64,000 nucleotides of DNA, from sequence record OR699282.2. One strand, 5' to 3'. Both the position numbers and the translations under genes were made by a program. The notes beneath the pieces were generated by a model that was not told where the DNA came from, made no database searches, and saw nothing but the letters and a program-made list of their open reading frames with translations. Origin of the DNA: Escherichia phage BAU.Micro_ELP-22. Position 1 is the first letter of the stretch. Each line of letters begins with the position of its first letter. Below are positions 1-64,000 of this stretch, in pieces.

Positions 1-267
1 AGTTTTATTGTAGGTGATATTGATGCATTCAAGTATTTTGACAAAGGTGCAAAACATTTTGAAATTCAATGTCTTAGTACTGCACTATGTGAACTCATTA
101 AAATTTACATAAAAGAGTATTTGGGTATTGACAATGTACGTGTACCAGAGTATACTTTTTCTATTGAATTCGATTGTGAATCAATCAAAGAGTTTGGAAT
201 TCTTTTCAATAAACAAATAGAACTTGCAATTCAAAACGAAATCAAGTACTATACTACTAACATTTAA
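1..267 (+). CDS. hypothetical protein, C-terminal fragment (5' end outside window)
   Basis: Frame 1 open from window edge to TAA 265-267. Confidence 0.5.
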   Translation, partial: SFIVGDIDAFKYFDKGAKHFEIQCLSTALCELIKIYIKEYLGIDNVRVPEYTFSIEFDCESIKEFGILFNKQIELAIQNEIKYYTTNI

Positions 268-282
268 TCAGAGGAAATTATC

Positions 283-465
283 ATGCAAATTATCATTCTT
301 ATCGTTGGCATCATGCTGGGTGTTTACGGTCACTCCTGGATGAACGAGAAGTTTCCTAATACGCGTCCTGAGTATTGCAGTACTAATGTATTCCAGAATG
401 GTGAGAAACCAAAGGAAAGCATTGGTAAAAAGCTGGATAAAGTACTTGATGTGATCAATGAATAA
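283..465 (+). CDS. hypothetical small protein
   Basis: ORF 60 aa; SD GAGGAA upstream of ATG. Confidence 0.55.
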   Translation: MQIIILIVGIMLGVYGHSWMNEKFPNTRPEYCSTNVFQNGEKPKESIGKKLDKVLDVINE

Positions 466-676
466 GGGCCATAAAATGTTTAAACCGAATTCCAATGTTG
501 GTAAGAAAGTTCAATTACTTGAAGATGTATCCACCATGAGTGGAATTTTCCCAAGAGGTCACATCATGACTATTATTGCCGAAACATCCCGTGGGTGGGA
601 TTTGGAAGATGCTGATGGTAATCGCATCCTTGAGGCTGGATTCTATGGTCATCGTGAATATAAAATCATTGATTAA
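458..676 (+). CDS. hypothetical protein
   Basis: ORF 72 aa overlapping upstream stop; alternative start at 476 with AAGGG. Confidence 0.5.
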   Translation: MNKGHKMFKPNSNVGKKVQLLEDVSTMSGIFPRGHIMTIIAETSRGWDLEDADGNRILEAGFYGHREYKIID

Positions 677-685
677 GGATACAAC

Positions 686-769
686 ATGACTTTAGAGATT
701 GTCTTTGGTATTGTTAGCTTAGTCGTCTGTGTGGGTTGGTTTGGGTATCTGATGATTTTTGGTGATTAA
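686..769 (+). CDS. small hydrophobic peptide (27 aa)
   Basis: AAGGA SD; hydrophobic sequence; short, uncertain. Confidence 0.3.
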   Translation: MTLEIVFGIVSLVVCVGWFGYLMIFGD

Positions 770-773
770 TACT

Positions 774-801
774 TGACATAAGATATCAGTACTGTATAAT
801 G
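774..801 (+). promoter_or_regulatory. sigma70-like promoter (TTGACA, ~16 nt spacer, TATAAT), followed by long 5' stem-loop 810-872
   Basis: Consensus hexamers read directly; AGTACTG abuts -10. Confidence 0.55.
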
Positions 802-893
802 TTTATATCAAAGGGAATGCAGTGAAAGGAAAGACAGCATAATCGTACTCGTCACTGCGTTCCCGCCCTTTTAAATTAAATGAGGAATTAACT

Positions 894-1202
894 ATGTTTC
901 AAACTAACACTCAAGGTTTTGTAATCATCGATTTGAATCAAAACAGCGGTTATTGGATGAAACCTACTGACGCATGTATGCAGTTTGATTTTTTAGGTTA
1001 CAGGATTAGTGTAAGTACTGGTGCTTCTGTACTGCGTGGTGGTTGTATCGTTGAACATCTGGTAACTGATCCAGAAGGTCGTGAGTATGAAATCGCAGGT
1101 TCGGTACAAGATGCCATTATGTTTGTATGTCAGCGTGAAATGAATAGTTCGAATTCAAATGCACTGACTCATGCTCTTTCTCAAGAAGTGGAGGTTCGTT
1201 AA
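894..1202 (+). CDS. hypothetical protein
   Basis: ORF 102 aa; SD GAGGAA. Confidence 0.65.
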   Translation: MFQTNTQGFVIIDLNQNSGYWMKPTDACMQFDFLGYRISVSTGASVLRGGCIVEHLVTDPEGREYEIAGSVQDAIMFVCQREMNSSNSNALTHALSQEVEVR

Positions 1203-1453
1203 TGAAATATATCGTAGCAGTACTCGTTGCATTTTTACTCACTGCATGTGACGCTTCAACAAAAGAACGCACAAGTGATTTTATTCTCCCTATTGAATTA
1301 CAAGAAGCAGGATGTAAGATTTATCGTATGCAAAAGGACGGTGCTGGCGTAACCTTGTATACAGTTTATTGCCCTAATGCAAATACCAGTACTGGATACA
1401 GCAGCGGTAAAACACGAATCAATACTTCAGTGATTAATGGAGTACAACAATGA
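1202..1453 (+). CDS. putative lipoprotein
   Basis: ORF 83 aa; N-terminal signal with lipobox LLTAC; start overlaps upstream stop. Confidence 0.6.
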   Translation: MKYIVAVLVAFLLTACDASTKERTSDFILPIELQEAGCKIYRMQKDGAGVTLYTVYCPNANTSTGYSSGKTRINTSVINGVQQ

Positions 1454-1818
1454 GCCTTGATACAACCCGTGCAACAGATTTATTAACTCGTATGAATAAT
1501 GAAGAATTTCTTGCTGAAATAAAGTACAAGCTTGAAAAACTGGCACGAAGTGCTGAAGTAATTGAAGTTGAAGGTCACTTACCAATGGACCAATTCAATA
1601 CGTTCAACGAAGATATGGTTTATTATCCAAATGAAATTTGGATTGAGTGGGAGTCATGGACTAACAAAACTCTACGCATTGAAGGTTATTGTGTGAATTA
1701 TGAATCTGAACCTGGTGATGTTACAAAAACTCTCTCCATTTGGTGTACAAAAACACATGAACTCGTTGAGGTGAATTTGAATTATATGAAAGGTTTCCGT
1801 TGGGGTGATGTTCAATGA
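1450..1818 (+). CDS. hypothetical protein
   Basis: ORF 122 aa, overlapping start/stop with neighbours. Confidence 0.6.
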   Translation: MSLDTTRATDLLTRMNNEEFLAEIKYKLEKLARSAEVIEVEGHLPMDQFNTFNEDMVYYPNEIWIEWESWTNKTLRIEGYCVNYESEPGDVTKTLSIWCTKTHELVEVNLNYMKGFRWGDVQ

Positions 1819-61780: not shown

Positions 61781-62005
61781 ATGGCTAACTTTGATGAACT
61801 GATGCGGGAAGTAGCTACCCTGGCAGAAGAAAAGAAATCATTCGATTCTATCTATAGCACCGCTCACCGTGATTCAGTACTGGCATGTAACCAGGATCAA
61901 AAAGATGAACTAATCGCCACCTATCATGAAGCATGGAAGTACTACCGACAATGGGAGAAAGAAGAAAGAGAGTCTACCATTGACGGCCTCAATAATCTAA
62001 TCTAA
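61781..62005 (+). CDS. hypothetical protein
   Basis: ORF 74 aa; SD AAGGAG. Confidence 0.65.
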   Translation: MANFDELMREVATLAEEKKSFDSIYSTAHRDSVLACNQDQKDELIATYHEAWKYYRQWEKEERESTIDGLNNLI

Positions 62006-62081
62006 AAGTTTTATTTCAGTACTATTGACATAGCTTGATAGTACTGATGTAATAACTTTACTAACTACAAGGGGAAACATA

Positions 62082-62339
62082 ATGGAACAGTTCACACAAT
62101 ATCGGGTAAATCCTCAAGCTATGGCCTACGTAGAAGACCATAAAACATTACCAGTACTAACACCAATTAAAGGCCATATCTATCGTGCAATGTCATGGAA
62201 TACCGCCCAGGATAGATATACTACCGCTGGCGTGGGTATGTATTGCGGGAATGGTGAATGGTTTGATCCAAATAATCCGGTAGCCATTGACAGTACTGAA
62301 AAAATGAAATGGGCCGACTACATCGAAGATATTTCATAA
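62082..62339 (+). CDS. hypothetical protein
   Basis: ORF 85 aa; class B promoter upstream. Confidence 0.6.
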   Translation: MEQFTQYRVNPQAMAYVEDHKTLPVLTPIKGHIYRAMSWNTAQDRYTTAGVGMYCGNGEWFDPNNPVAIDSTEKMKWADYIEDIS

Positions 62340-62429
62340 AAACTATTTGACAGTACTAACCAGTAATGTATAATGTTTTACATAGAGCGGGGGAATAGTT
62401 CTCCCGCCAATAGTTTGGAGTAAAACATT

Positions 62430-62630
62430 ATGTCTATCGCTATCGCCCTGGTTGAAGTACTGAAAGAAGCTAAAGCCAACCAGATCGACGTAAAGATCCA
62501 GGAACTACAAAACGGCGTAATCGGCTGTACTTGTACCGCTGGTGGAGCGGCAGACTATCGAGAACACGAATCACTCGAATCACTGGTTCGGTATCTTACC
62601 ATGATCGTTGATGATTGGAGAATCATCTAA
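62430..62630 (+). CDS. hypothetical protein
   Basis: ORF 66 aa. Confidence 0.6.
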   Translation: MSIAIALVEVLKEAKANQIDVKIQELQNGVIGCTCTAGGAADYREHESLESLVRYLTMIVDDWRII

Positions 62631-62874
62631 CAAAAAAGAATAAAAAAGGGATTGACTCCGGTCAGTCCCTTTGCTATTATATACGCATAGACAAAAACTA
62701 GCCCACAGGGTGCATAGGTGTATCCAAAATATATAGTTAATAACGGTGAGTAACTATCTGCTGGTGGAGTGAAAACTATTAATAAAAAAGTATTGACAAA
62801 GTATATCAGTACTGCGATAATGTATCTCGTAGGGCGGCAATGGTGCAACGGCCCACAAAGTTAGGAGATTCAAA

Positions 62875-63207
62875 ATGAGTACTTCAATCGCTATCGTTAA
62901 AGCTTTCATCCGTACCAATGTTTCATCTGTATTCATCGACGGACTGGATCGTGAAGTAGAATACTCAATCATTATCGCACAGACTGCAAACGGTGCTCGG
63001 TATATCCTCAATGATAGTGAAGCAAATCACTACTACTTCACTAAAGCTACTGGCTTTAAACGCATCGATGCCGATGTAGTATACGCTAAGATGAATAAGC
63101 TGGTAGACAAGATTAACGCTAAAGGCACTATTGATTTACAGTACTGGACCGAAACCGATCCAGAATATGGATCTCACCGCTACCTGAATCCAGGTATCAA
63201 AATGTAA
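62875..63207 (+). CDS. hypothetical protein
   Basis: ORF 110 aa; SD AGGAGA. Confidence 0.65.
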   Translation: MSTSIAIVKAFIRTNVSSVFIDGLDREVEYSIIIAQTANGARYILNDSEANHYYFTKATGFKRIDADVVYAKMNKLVDKINAKGTIDLQYWTETDPEYGSHRYLNPGIKM

Positions 63208-63296
63208 AAAGTACTTGCATAGTACTTAGATTCATGTATAATGTTTTACATAGAGAGGGGGAAATGGTTCTCCCTCCTAAATTAAGGAGTTTTATC

Positions 63297-63698
63297 ATGA
63301 CCTTCTCAATCACTTCCTTCGCTGACGTTTTAGTACTGGCTCGGACTTTTGGTAAAGATGCACTGGAGTACGCTGTAAGTAATGGCACTATCCAACCGGA
63401 ACAGTGCCGCATCATTGGAAACTGCAAACGTTGGGCGGTATCCAATACTATTGCACTGGAAAACTTCCACGATGGCAACAATGAATATTCTGTTGATGTA
63501 GTATTCGAAGCCGTTGATCTCGGCGGTATCTATAATACTAACCTGAATGATGTGCGTATCGTTCGCACTGGGTTCGGTGCTTATGATGTATCTATTCGTG
63601 AAGCTATGAACACCGGATACATTAGCAAGGACTTACTTGCTCACATCATGCAGCTGTGTACGGAACGTAACGAAGCACGCACTATCTTAGGACTGTAA
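63297..63698 (+). CDS. hypothetical protein
   Basis: Start after hairpin, SD AAGGAG (133 aa). Confidence 0.65.
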   Translation: MTFSITSFADVLVLARTFGKDALEYAVSNGTIQPEQCRIIGNCKRWAVSNTIALENFHDGNNEYSVDVVFEAVDLGGIYNTNLNDVRIVRTGFGAYDVSIREAMNTGYISKDLLAHIMQLCTERNEARTILGL

Positions 63699-63766
63699 GC
63701 GTTACACATCACCAAACATCATAGGCCGCTCTCTAGCGGCCTTAACTATATCAGGAGTACATACAC

Positions 63767-63976
63767 ATGATCTATACAGTATACAGCGTCCTAGGCACTA
63801 TTGCAGGCGTACATGATAACGTCGATAGTGCTATGCGTACAGTACTGCAACAGGTTCCACTAAAGCCTAAGACCATTAAGCAGATGACAGCACGACTAAC
63901 CAGGGCGACCGATGGCGTGGAAGTATGGCAGGACTACGGGGATACACAGATAATCGTTAGCGTAACGAAGGATTAA
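63767..63976 (+). CDS. hypothetical protein
   Basis: ORF 69 aa; SD AGGAG. Confidence 0.6.
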   Translation: MIYTVYSVLGTIAGVHDNVDSAMRTVLQQVPLKPKTIKQMTARLTRATDGVEVWQDYGDTQIIVSVTKD

Positions 63977-64000
63977 TGCGTAAAGGGATCTAGTACTGAT

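Follow-up and report, generated by a model that had tools for sequence, protein, structure and literature searches.

Hyper-abundance of the palindrome AGTACT in an Asteriusvirus jumbo coliphage and its relatives

The window and its AGTACT copies

The stretch of DNA analyzed here (the window) comprises 64,000 bp from an Asteriusvirus jumbo coliphage of the 121Q/PBECO4/E9.1 group. A block of mostly unique genes is followed by an RCC1-like paralogue array, an array of short paralogous genes, a largely non-coding region, and a set of early-type small genes (Table 1). The non-coding region adjoins an iteron-like array with an 8-bp period (tandem repeats at 43529–43628), and its counterpart in phage 121Q (135,194–137,161) is likewise unannotated.

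An earlier note on this DNA had claimed that AGTACT recurs several times per kb throughout, and the excess proves to be real and larger than was claimed. AGTACT is the commonest of all hexamers in the window, and the k-mer count with Markov expectation that the note had proposed gave 295 copies against 21.8 under a first-order and 49 under a second-order model (21.6 from base composition), a 13.6-fold enrichment that lies ∼58 SD above the first-order value. The density is 3–4 per kb in the first 37 kb and 5–9 per kb from 37 to 64 kb; as the word is palindromic, strand is irrelevant. In the whole genome of phage 121Q there are 902 copies (2.6 per kb) against ∼120 expected, and each 50-kb block is enriched (76–221 copies against ∼17). 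This phage and its relatives carry ∼900 copies per genome, roughly 8–20 times the number expected by chance. No description of this excess was found in the literature searched.

Table 1. Regions of the window and positions of selected AGTACT-containing features.
Feature	Position	Strand	Observation	Basis
Whole window	1..64000	irrelevant	295 dispersed AGTACT	k-mer counts, flanks, spacing
Mostly unique genes	1..24300	+	81 AGTACT (72 in ORFs), ∼10-fold enriched	gene model
RCC1-like paralogue array	24300..37200	-	38 AGTACT	gene model
About 22 diverged paralogous genes of 50–75 aa	37244..42447	+	highest in-gene density, 7.4 per kb	gene model
Largely non-coding region of 2 kb	42448..44436		19 AGTACT	8 of the window's 18 TCAGTACTGA 10-mers
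Early-type small genes with individual sigma-70-like promoters	44400..64000	+	33 of 41 promoters with AGTACT	promoter survey
Example promoter	48150..48182	+	AGTACT-TGCAATTAGTTTTC-AGTACT-GTATAAT	sequence
Full 12-bp palindrome TTCAGTACTGAA (n = 8)	36644, 43784, 44252 (44252..44263), 44305, 46062, 46361, 48488, 60480			motif search

Under an approximate gene model, 210 copies fall fully inside ORFs (3.9 per kb) and 80 are intergenic (8.4 per kb). The density tracks constraint, decreasing from 8–11 per kb in intergenic DNA through 4–7 per kb in small accessory genes to 1.5–2.4 per kb in replication and structural genes. The enrichment in the block of unique genes arises without repeated promoters or paralogues. 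In the array of 50–75-aa paralogues, AGTACT often specifies the Val-Leu within an (E/A)VLKLI motif at the C terminus.

Sequence context and pressure inside genes

The copies within ORFs occupy all three reading frames (84/48/78), in agreement with the earlier note. Their number (210) far exceeds that remaining after the order of codons is shuffled (25.6 ± 5.3) or after synonymous codons are shuffled within genes (61.6 ± 7.1; the highest count among 200 shuffles was 83), so that the enrichment persists once the promoter and terminator copies are set aside, the comparison on which the note had staked its claim. Ser-Thr dipeptides are written AGT-ACT in 84 of 159 instances, where 24 would be expected. 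The dipeptides are themselves in excess (Ser-Thr, 159 against 92 expected; Val-Leu, 173 against 108), while the reversed Thr-Ser and Leu-Val occur at expectation, indicating that Ser-Thr and Val-Leu are over-used in order to carry AGTACT. The pressure acts on the DNA sequence and not on the protein, biasing both codon pairs and amino acid sequence.

The flanks of AGTACT in the window are symmetric, with C at −1 in 44% and G at +1 in 46% of copies, T-rich positions at −4/−3, and A-rich positions at +3/+4. The preferred context is H-AGTACT-D, and the mirror-image preferences recur in five genera, in all of which G at −1 and C at +1 are disfavored. Such symmetry is expected for a two-fold symmetric reader. 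Extended forms include CAGTACTG (n = 66) and the 10-mer TCAGTACTGA (n = 18), of which the share in the non-coding region (Table 1) is far from even (Fisher p = 1.8e-6) and marks that region as a cluster of the best palindromes. Five of the positions at which 10–12-bp palindromes had previously been reported lie within 6 nt of a full TTCAGTACTGAA, whereas that at 47582 is ATTCAGTACTGAG, which matches in only 11 of 12 positions.

Spacing between copies is near exponential (KS p = 0.72 and 0.08; CV 0.77–0.87), with a mean of ∼220–390 bp and gaps of up to 1,290 bp, long gaps being somewhat fewer than an exponential distribution would give. No local periodicity was detected other than promoter pairs 20–24 bp apart, and closely spaced pairs showed no excess beyond these.

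The occurrence of AGTACT in promoters was confirmed (AAAAAGTACTTGCA, n = 11; AGTACTGTATAAT, n = 14 in the window). Among the 41 sigma-70-like promoters beyond 42 kb, 33 contain the hexamer between −43 and −7; it abuts the −35 hexamer in 19 (as AAAAGTACTTGCA or AGTACTATTGACA) and the −10 hexamer in 19 (next to an extended −10, as AGTACTGTATAAT or AGTACTGGCATAAT), thus occupying two different positions. The example in Table 1 has both, 20 bp apart. Hairpins of the form CCAGTAC..GTACTGG, also reported previously, number five (at 23623, 29119, 31142, 32405, and 33615), and the last four are intergenic hairpins of the RCC1-like array in which the half-sites are split by a loop, CCAGTAC(N3–6)GTACTGG. 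The hexamer is not confined to the fixed positions upstream of starts that a sigma-70 promoter or UP element would occupy, as 71% of copies lie in ORFs. Copies in promoters and terminators appear to be side effects of the genome-wide pressure and not the source of the signal.

Nearly all other palindromes are purged from the genomes rich in AGTACT: 24 of the 64 hexamer palindromes are absent from the window, as is GCGC. The depletion of the restriction-site type that is usual for phage palindromes is not seen for AGTACT (13.6-fold enriched), whereas the coliphage phi92 displays it (0 copies against 8.2 expected). One-mismatch neighbors of AGTACT are mostly enriched one- to threefold (AGTATT and AATACT, 1.3-fold); the one low count is that of AGTCCT, whose complement is not low. 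Neighbor enrichment of this size would result from the decay of AGTACT sites or, equally, from a looser specificity. The Chi sequence GCTGGTGG is also strongly enriched in the window (16 copies against 0.44 expected).

Distribution and turnover among related phages

Enrichment of 6- to 20-fold extends across the Klebsiella, Cronobacter, Serratia, Salmonella, and Xanthomonas phages of the clade, including RaK2 (119 copies against 17 expected), GAP32 (64 in 30 kb), Serratia phage BF (138 against 7), Salmonella phage Munch (90 against 7), and Xanthomonas phage XaC1 (93 in 24.5 kb against ∼8). In the modules that encode structural and replication functions, 121Q, RaK2, and GAP32 show 4.5- to 7-fold enrichment. 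No enrichment was found in 30 kb of Pseudomonas phage PA5oct (1 copy), in the unrelated phi92 (0 against 8 expected), or in a 50-kb sample of Escherichia coli K-12 (3 against 11.6; ∼0.06 per kb). The pressure operates genome-wide and has been passed on through a deep clade of phages whose hosts differ.

An alignment of four Asteriusvirus genomes over the block at 1..24300 was used to follow individual sites. Half of the AGTACT sites (50%) are kept in all four genomes, compared with 21% for control words of the same composition. Gains per opportunity are more frequent than for control words (2.8% versus 1.1%; p = 0.036) and losses less frequent (18.6% versus 28.4%; p = 0.026), with loss at the control rate in the UE-S1 lineage (7 of 36 versus 93 of 471). 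Per-site constraint within the genus is modest. Between orthologues of RaK2 and GAP32, 1 of 23–25 sites is common, yet both phages are still enriched five- to sixfold. It is the density of AGTACT that is maintained and not its particular positions, which turn over completely between genera.

Candidate explanations and known systems

We tentatively favor, at a little under even confidence, the view that AGTACT is a dispersed, density-selected recognition word of a putative two-fold symmetric factor specific to the clade of RaK2/121Q-like jumbo phages. This factor would be a binding protein and/or a modifying enzyme able to act anywhere on phage DNA. With ∼900 copies (2.6 per kb) in the phage and ∼0.06 per kb in E. 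coli, the word would tag phage DNA and concentrate the factor on it, and the tag could serve in protection, in compacting the DNA into a compartment for replication or packaging, or as an epigenetic mark. The best 10–12-bp palindromes, clustered at 42.4–44.4 kb, may serve as a place of high-affinity nucleation, bare hexamers being the weaker sites. The same pressure would fill promoter and hairpin positions where promoters tolerate any sequence, and these copies may perhaps have been secondarily co-opted for early-promoter control. Several considerations count against this explanation: the per-site constraint is modest, the enrichment of one-mismatch neighbors is compatible with a looser specificity, typical operators are longer than a bare 6-bp word, and ∼900 ScaI-type sites, if left unprotected, are a handicap in hosts that possess such restriction systems. 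The earlier note had likewise invoked a sequence-specific factor or genome-wide selection, naming a binding protein, a modification or nicking enzyme, and a packaging or replication signal. Its general inference is borne out indirectly, by the DNA-level pressure, symmetric flanks, sharing across the clade, and gain and loss of sites, but none of the named candidates is pinned down.

The most concrete candidate for a reader or writer, albeit a weak one, is a small Dam-family N6-adenine methyltransferase (121Q gene 417), whose gene is conserved at a syntenic position in every enriched genus, Xanthomonas phages included. No Pseudomonas record appears among 90 hits at E ≤ 1e-30. Two unrelated phages with ∼43% identical homologues show no AGTACT enrichment, and the co-occurrence is confounded by phylogeny and amounts to one contrast. 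The DNA of 121Q migrates normally on pulsed-field gels (PMC5646251), which argues against a bulky charged modification and is uninformative with regard to methylation.

Much of the evolutionary pattern would also follow from a non-adaptive molecular drive, in which phage repair or recombination converts near-cognate sequences to AGTACT and copies accumulate without function, whether by mismatch correction of the very-short-patch (VSP) type or by biased gene conversion in the heteroduplexes that are frequent in T4-like replication. VSP repair in E. coli is thought to have raised CCWGG by such conversion. The 2.5-fold gain relative to control words, the complete positional turnover with persisting density, and the dependence of density on freedom from constraint are predicted by both drive and weak selection. 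We nevertheless consider drive unlikely. It should deplete its substrates, as expected of a word driven by VSP-type repair, but none of the 18 feeder one-mismatch neighbors is depleted (AGTATT and AATACT, 1.3-fold); losses are slowed as well; a uniform drive does not predict the clustering of the best extended palindromes in one non-coding region; and, as amino acids are changed, drive would need to overcome selection at the protein level. Slightly less likely, in our judgment, is that AGTACT marks sites for a catalytic DNA-processing enzyme that acts at short intervals on either strand, such as the phage primase, a type II topoisomerase, or a nicking enzyme through which replication or late-transcription factors are loaded. 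A palindrome offers the identical site on both strands, a 4-base staggered cut A/GTAC/T would fit the two-fold symmetry of a topoisomerase, the phage encodes a primase, a gp41-like helicase, and a topoisomerase II of its own (121Q genes 19, 20, 52, and 53), and the near-random spacing of ∼220–390 bp has slightly too few long gaps. That regularity is, however, too weak for a maximum-gap constraint, given gaps of up to 1,290 bp; the density is non-uniform, with maxima in the early region and non-coding DNA; and nothing links a primase, topoisomerase, or nicking enzyme to this word. To our knowledge, known phage primases read trinucleotides, and such recognition needs no enriched word.

A role in RNA, in which self-complementary AGUACU copies pair within transcripts and the structure shields AT-rich mRNAs from RNase E or Rho or creates processing sites, strikes us as improbable. 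In favor of such a role, a palindrome is the same whichever strand is transcribed, an extension of the palindrome into the flanks would make pairing stronger, the five intergenic hairpins have half-sites as their stems, and the phage encodes a T7 gp0.7-like kinase whose annotated targets are RNase III and RNase E. Against this, closely spaced pairs are not in excess beyond promoter pairs (KS p = 0.72 and 0.08), the densest cluster of best sites lies in the 2-kb non-coding region beside iteron-like repeats, and any self-complementary word would do, yet one word is fixed across genera that are ∼35% diverged in nucleotide sequence. Two further proposals have almost nothing left to recommend them. 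One is that the excess is a side effect of modules present in several copies (early promoters that were duplicated, terminators, and gene paralogues) in which AGTACT occurs by chance. Promoter cassettes and paralogue arrays do recur, many with AGTACT, and intergenic density is twice the genic; this origin is refuted by the in-gene shuffles, which abolish most copies, by the use of three frames, and by enrichment in unique, conserved genes, both in the ∼10-fold enriched 1–24 kb block and in the modules for structural and replication functions noted above (4.5- to 7-fold). Binding of a host protein has an obvious candidate in the E. coli nucleoid-occlusion factor SlmA, through which a slow-growing jumbo phage might profitably block division, and whose 12-bp site GTGAGTACTCAC has AGTACT at its center (PMC3020112). 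SlmA requires G1, T2, A4, and G5, with a purine at position 3 (site GTRAGYRCTYAC; PMC3020112). The window contains no match to GTRAGYRCTYAC, and GAGTACTC counts of 0, 1, 0, 0, and 0 in five genera indicate that the SlmA-type flank is actively disfavored; AGTACT is equally enriched in the Xanthomonas phage and absent from coliphage phi92. Flanks and host range thus contradict an identity with SlmA sites.

The density-selected recognition word that we favor has partial counterparts elsewhere. The Neisseria DUS and Haemophilus USS are dispersed at ∼1 per kb in all frames, bias the encoded proteins, often form inverted terminator pairs, and persist at a given density without keeping fixed positions, acting as a self tag. 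They resemble AGTACT in all of these respects but are asymmetric words of 9–12 bp, read by a competence receptor and driven by uptake and recombination; lytic phages lack any comparable step of uptake, and the likeness is one of population-genetic pattern only. Enterobacterial GATC (Dam, SeqA, MutH) is a genome-wide rather than locus-specific mark, present every ∼200–250 bp and read by several dimeric proteins via its methylation state. Its density is comparable to that of AGTACT (one per 217 bp in the window), although a 4-mer attains this by chance whereas a 6-mer needs 8- to 20-fold enrichment, and methylation of AGTACT is hypothetical. Chi is likewise an over-represented word that acts anywhere on DNA to modulate an enzyme, but it is asymmetric and orientation-dependent, while AGTACT is palindromic and ∼20 times more frequent in the window. 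The stoperators of cluster A mycobacteriophages also seed a phage genome, genes and promoters alike, with many copies of one protein-binding site; a temperate phage of this kind has 20–35 of them, each an asymmetric 13-mer that follows the direction of transcription and is bound by the phage's immunity repressor, in contrast to ∼900 palindromic copies in a lytic phage.

The closest parallel appears to be the cyanobacterial Highly Iterated Palindrome HIP1 (GCGATCGC), of which the AGTACT system may be regarded as an analogue and not a member. Both are short palindromes that are hyper-abundant genome-wide, inside and between genes, with sites conserved beyond expectation, implying selection, and both are without an agreed function, in the case of HIP1 despite decades of study. 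A DNA methyltransferase link has been proposed for HIP1; here too, a conserved methyltransferase is the sole candidate. The over-representation of HIP1 is reported as 15- to 300-fold (PMC5861425). AGTACT shares with HIP1 an abundance of at least about 10-fold over expectation genome-wide (295 versus ∼22 in the window; 902 versus ∼120 in 121Q), occurrence in all frames and between genes beyond protein need (84/48/78; 210 versus 61.6), and conservation beyond controls (50% versus 21%), which is modest and is absent between genera. It differs in being another word (6 bp and AT-rich, neither GCGATCGC nor a close variant), in residing in viruses rather than in cyanobacterial cells, in its near-random local spacing, in positions that are not conserved between genera, and in its persistence in phage genomes that otherwise purge palindromes.

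AGTACT in the window and its surroundings

By megablast, the window is 96-98% identical to the Asteriusvirus jumbo coliphages (121Q, PBECO4, E9.1, SHEFM2K and others) and belongs to that group; its counterpart in E9.1 spans 303,928-367,723 of a 367,851-bp record. The palindromic hexamer AGTACT, a ScaI-type site, occurs 295 times in the window and is its top-ranking hexamer, against 21.6 copies expected by base composition and 21.8 and 49 under first- and second-order Markov models, respectively. The over-representation reported in the earlier note is confirmed by these counts (295 vs 21.8), and the excess is robust. 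At 13.6-fold, AGTACT is the lone outlier among the 64 palindromic hexamers, the next being GTGCAC (2.7-fold) and TGTACA (2.1-fold). Palindrome avoidance in the window is extreme: 24 of the 64 have no copy, though 2-7 are expected for each, and the tetramer GCGC is absent from the 64 kb, for an estimate of ~65 from base composition. Klebsiella phage RaK2, Serratia phage BF, Salmonella phage Munch and coliphage phi92 show similar avoidance (23-33 absent palindromic hexamers), and the number in Pseudomonas phage PA5oct is 10. The window also has a strand-asymmetric depletion of AGTCCT (1 copy vs 11.2 expected), the reverse complement AGGACT being near expectation (10 vs 13.1).

Features of the window by position and strand
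Feature	Position	Strand	Remarks
Mostly hypothetical genes	1-24.3 kb	+	products named in relatives: virion protein, kinase, endonuclease V, AAA ATPase
Variable segment	18504-19928 (L008 18087-18923)		474-aa ORF without significant Pfam domain
RCC1-like paralogue array	24.3-37.2 kb	-	
~22 diverged paralogues	37.2-42.4 kb (37244-42447)	+	50-75 aa
Largely non-coding region	42.4-44.4 kb (42,448-44,436)		
Iteron-like array	43529-43628		8-bp period
Small early-type genes	44.4-64 kb		own promoter each
Early-gene cassettes, examples	44874, 45191, 47305, 48661, 50847, 52362, 58015, 61412		stereotyped over 44800-62000
Repeated element	53362/53415, 57400/57448, 60391/60444, 62654/62702; also 46227, 55091	+	GACTCCGGTCAG, CCCAYAGGGTGC
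Chi GCTGGTGG	14611, 43311, 50415, 54748, 56211, 57479, 59550, 60959, 62538, 62760	+	
Chi GCTGGTGG	30415, 30673, 30928, 36917, 43299, 50353	-	

Several features of this layout merit description in their own right. The highly diverged genes of the tandem array encode proteins that share an N-terminal (K/E)(E/D)(F/Y)Y motif and have hydrophobic C-termini; in 121Q, another long run of genes for ~70-aa proteins lies at 155-162 kb. Asteriusvirus genomes vary in the segment that separates endonuclease V from the AAA ATPase: the annotation of relatives in this part is an endonuclease, a homing endonuclease or a 'restriction enzyme', and ph0011 has a putative N6-adenine methyltransferase in its place. 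Chi sites number 16 in the window, for ~0.44 expected, and nine of the ten on the + strand lie in the early region (43-63 kb), an orientation that would be read by RecBCD entering at the right-hand record end; the copies at 43299 and 43311, on opposite strands and <20 bp apart, form an inverted repeat.

Using an approximate gene model, we placed 210 copies of AGTACT wholly within ORFs (3.9/kb) and 80 between genes (8.4/kb). All three frames are used, which bears out the earlier claim that the word occurs in every reading frame inside genes. Shuffling synonymous codons within each gene left 61.6 ± 7.1 of the 210 copies, and shuffling codon order left 25.6 ± 5.3. The enrichment thus persists without the promoter and terminator copies, the exclusion of which the note had named as its test. 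An artefact of promoters, terminators or paralogues is ruled out by these in-gene shuffles and by the enrichment of unique and structural genes; the unique-gene block at 1-24 kb alone is enriched ~10-fold. The dipeptides that can accommodate the word are affected as well. AGT-ACT encodes 84 of 159 Ser-Thr dipeptides (24 expected by codon usage) and GTA-CTN encodes 101 of 173 Val-Leu dipeptides (38 expected), and both dipeptides are themselves over-used (159 vs 92 expected and 173 vs 108, respectively), with the reversed Thr-Ser and Leu-Val at expectation. Because of the shuffles and this over-use, we conclude that the pressure targets the word as DNA and has been strong enough to change protein sequences.

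The extended palindrome and the promoter and hairpin contexts described in the note were each found at or near the positions it gave. In the early region, AGTACT lies between -43 and -7 in 33 of 41 sigma-70-like promoters, adjoining the -35 hexamer or the extended -10 TG, positions that we take to be places where sigma-70 promoter function constrains sequence little. The two flanks mirror each other, with T prevalent at -4/-3 and A at +3/+4. Asteriusvirus and RaK2 favour C at -1 and G at +1, and BF and Munch favour A at -1 with T at +1. All five genera under-use G at -1 and C at +1, and their counts of GAGTACTC are 0, 1, 0, 0 and 0. Spacing is near exponential (CV 0.77-0.87), and a search for helical or long-gap periodicity returned none except promoter pairs 20-24 bp apart. 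Of the 18 copies of the extended 10-mer TCAGTACTGA, 8 are concentrated in the 2-kb non-coding region (Fisher p = 1.8e-6).

The iteron-like array within the same region, with units such as GACGGCTA, AACGGCTA and GATGGCTA, may serve as a replication origin or as some other array bound by protein; the corresponding gap in 121Q (135,194-137,161) is likewise without annotation. Early cassettes run from a strong sigma-70-like promoter through a 5'-UTR hairpin and a ribosome-binding site to ATG. The conserved hairpin, GGGGR(N3-14)YCCCC, lies just past the likely start site (24 pattern matches, a few of which overlap) and has no Rfam match, and Rfam places no known RNA family within the window. A further repeated element carries its own promoter-like sequence, a hairpin with GACTCCGGTCAG and the motif CCCAYAGGGTGC, which follows ~50 nt downstream; no ORF in it is convincing, so it may represent a family of small non-coding RNAs.

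Extent across the clade and turnover of sites

The complete 121Q genome contains 902 copies of AGTACT (2.6/kb), distributed over its seven 50-kb blocks as 76, 131, 221, 162, 133, 91 and 88; a dinucleotide-preserving shuffle of a single block gave 17.5 ± 3.9. The minimum density, 1.5-1.8/kb in the replication and structural modules, is still ~5-fold enriched. Comparable excesses are found in RaK2 (119 observed, 17 expected), Cronobacter phage GAP32 (64 in 30 kb, ~10 expected), BF (138, 7 expected), Munch (90, 7 expected) and Xanthomonas phage XaC1 (93 in 24.5 kb, ~8 expected). The related PA5oct has 1 copy in 30 kb (~10 expected), the unrelated phi92 has 0 (8.2 expected) and a 50-kb sample of E. 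coli K-12 has 3 (11.6 expected). These comparisons indicate that the excess is a trait of the phage lineage and not of the host; a general host effect is ruled out, since phi92 is itself a coliphage and E. coli is depleted. The contrast in density between phage and host DNA is ~40-75-fold, the host value coming from one small sample. A search of PA5oct for an equivalent iterated palindrome yielded only a mild excess of TGCA (200 vs 88) and CTGCAG (14 vs 2.3) in 100000-130000, and this phage may have a far weaker word of its own.

The evolutionary behavior of the sites was followed by aligning window 1-24 kb with 121Q (97% identical), UE-S1 (89%) and ph0011 (86%), with 179 words of the same composition as controls. 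AGTACT was kept in all four genomes at 29 of 58 alignable sites (50%), compared with 378 of 1,838 (21%) for the controls. Gain from near-sites, per opportunity, was 2.5 times that of the controls (6/212 vs 373/32,975, p = 0.036), and loss was 0.66 times (22/118 vs 551/1,943, p = 0.026). At greater distance, 14 late genes with orthologues in RaK2 and GAP32 (~65% nucleotide identity) were aligned by codon; they contain 23 and 25 copies, of which one is at a shared position (4%; controls 7.5%), and both gene sets are 5-6-fold enriched despite this turnover. The picture is of a persistent, weak and directional force per site that keeps density, not particular positions.

The pressure may differ between lineages. 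UE-S1 (82309-103132) has 2.6 copies/kb, compared with 3.3/kb in window 1-24000, and its lineage lost ancestral copies at the control rate (7/36 vs 93/471); the 121Q/window lineage lost almost none (1/30 vs 124/502 for controls). The Dam-family methyltransferase of UE-S1 is intact and 98% identical.

Candidate readers and rival explanations

The earlier note had proposed a sequence-specific factor acting genome-wide, and this proposal is partly supported: the part that stands is a symmetric, clade-wide pressure at the DNA level. The features of AGTACT fit a recognition word scattered over the genome, the putative reader of which would be two-fold symmetric, particular to this phage clade and directed at double-stranded DNA, with an action that depends on the number of sites per DNA. 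One phage genome carries ~3 times the number of copies extrapolated from the 50-kb sample for the entire E. coli chromosome, and for that reason the word would make an effective tag of phage DNA. The best palindromes cluster beside the iteron-like repeats, in what may be a region of high-affinity entry, the bare hexamers then acting as weak sites. We put forward, as a speculative and on balance unlikely model, that in RaK2/121Q-like jumbo phages, which are without a phage nucleus or bulky DNA modification, the ~900-copy tag marks own versus host DNA: a phage-encoded symmetric reader, possibly acting via adenine methylation, would nucleate at the 12-bp palindrome cluster by the iteron region and then selectively protect, compact, transcribe or package phage DNA. 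The normal migration of 121Q DNA on pulsed-field gel electrophoresis (PMC5646251) argues against bulky charged hypermodification.

Two methyltransferases of 121Q were considered. The C5-cytosine enzyme (gene 91) is unlikely as the writer, as phi92 has a 51% identical homologue but no AGTACT. The Dam-family N6-adenine methyltransferase (gene 417; PF05869, TIGR01712) is a small, syntenic core gene in all enriched genera tested, the Xanthomonas phages among them. No Pseudomonas phage matches it at E <= 1e-30, it has no relative in the PDB, and the PA5oct paper mentions no methyltransferase. Two unrelated phages with ~43% identical homologues show no AGTACT enrichment. Given these two phages and a single phylogenetic contrast, the putative link between gene 417 and the word is a lead, not a finding.

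Several other explanations were weighed. Gain bias and positional turnover are what a non-adaptive conversion drive accumulating AGTACT would predict, but a VSP-like drive also predicts depletion of precursor words, which was not seen, and it accounts neither for slowed loss nor for the clustering of strong sites. Alternatively, AGTACT could be a catalytic site for priming, topoisomerase II or nicking, for which a palindrome at such spacing is suitable; the sites, however, show no evident maximum-gap constraint and their density is far from uniform. A role for the self-complementary AGUACU in RNA is not supported, as close pairs are not in excess and the non-coding cluster is a poor match for it. 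Host SlmA, the binding site of which (GTGAGTACTCAC) contains the word, is excluded by zero SBS matches, the wrong flanks and the enrichment of a Xanthomonas phage.

Significance and relation to known systems

The AGTACT signal is very strong, deeply conserved and costly to the phage. Loss of restriction-type palindromes is the expectation for a phage genome, and this clade takes it to an extreme. A single ScaI-type palindrome has nevertheless been driven to the top of its hexamers, at a cost visible in proteins; we therefore propose an unrecognized, deeply conserved DNA-level system. The word, as AGTACT or CAGTACTG, is not mentioned in the openly accessible literature covered by full-text searches or in the CBB, RaK2, phAPEC6, Sharanji, PA5oct and 121Q capsid papers. 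The clade is a widespread group of therapeutic-candidate jumbo phages and is experimentally tractable, with E. coli and Klebsiella as hosts, a commercial restriction site as the word and methylome sequencing directly applicable. Its members are predicted to be either extremely sensitive or completely resistant to ScaI-type restriction systems, and AGTACT provides a cheap signature for them in metagenomes. If the tag reading were true, it would constitute a new kind of viral self/non-self discrimination, and a highly iterated palindrome would for the first time be explained in functional terms.

The closest analogue is HIP1 of cyanobacteria, a hyper-abundant palindrome within and between genes that is maintained by selection and has no known function (PMC5861425). 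The phages offer a simpler model in which to address the long-standing puzzle posed by such palindromes. With DNA uptake sequences, GATC/Dam and Chi, AGTACT has in common the logic of a word dispersed genome-wide. Unlike these known systems, it is a viral word and an AT-rich, 6-bp site of the restriction type, the genomes that carry it are otherwise purged of palindromes, and its positions turn over between genera.
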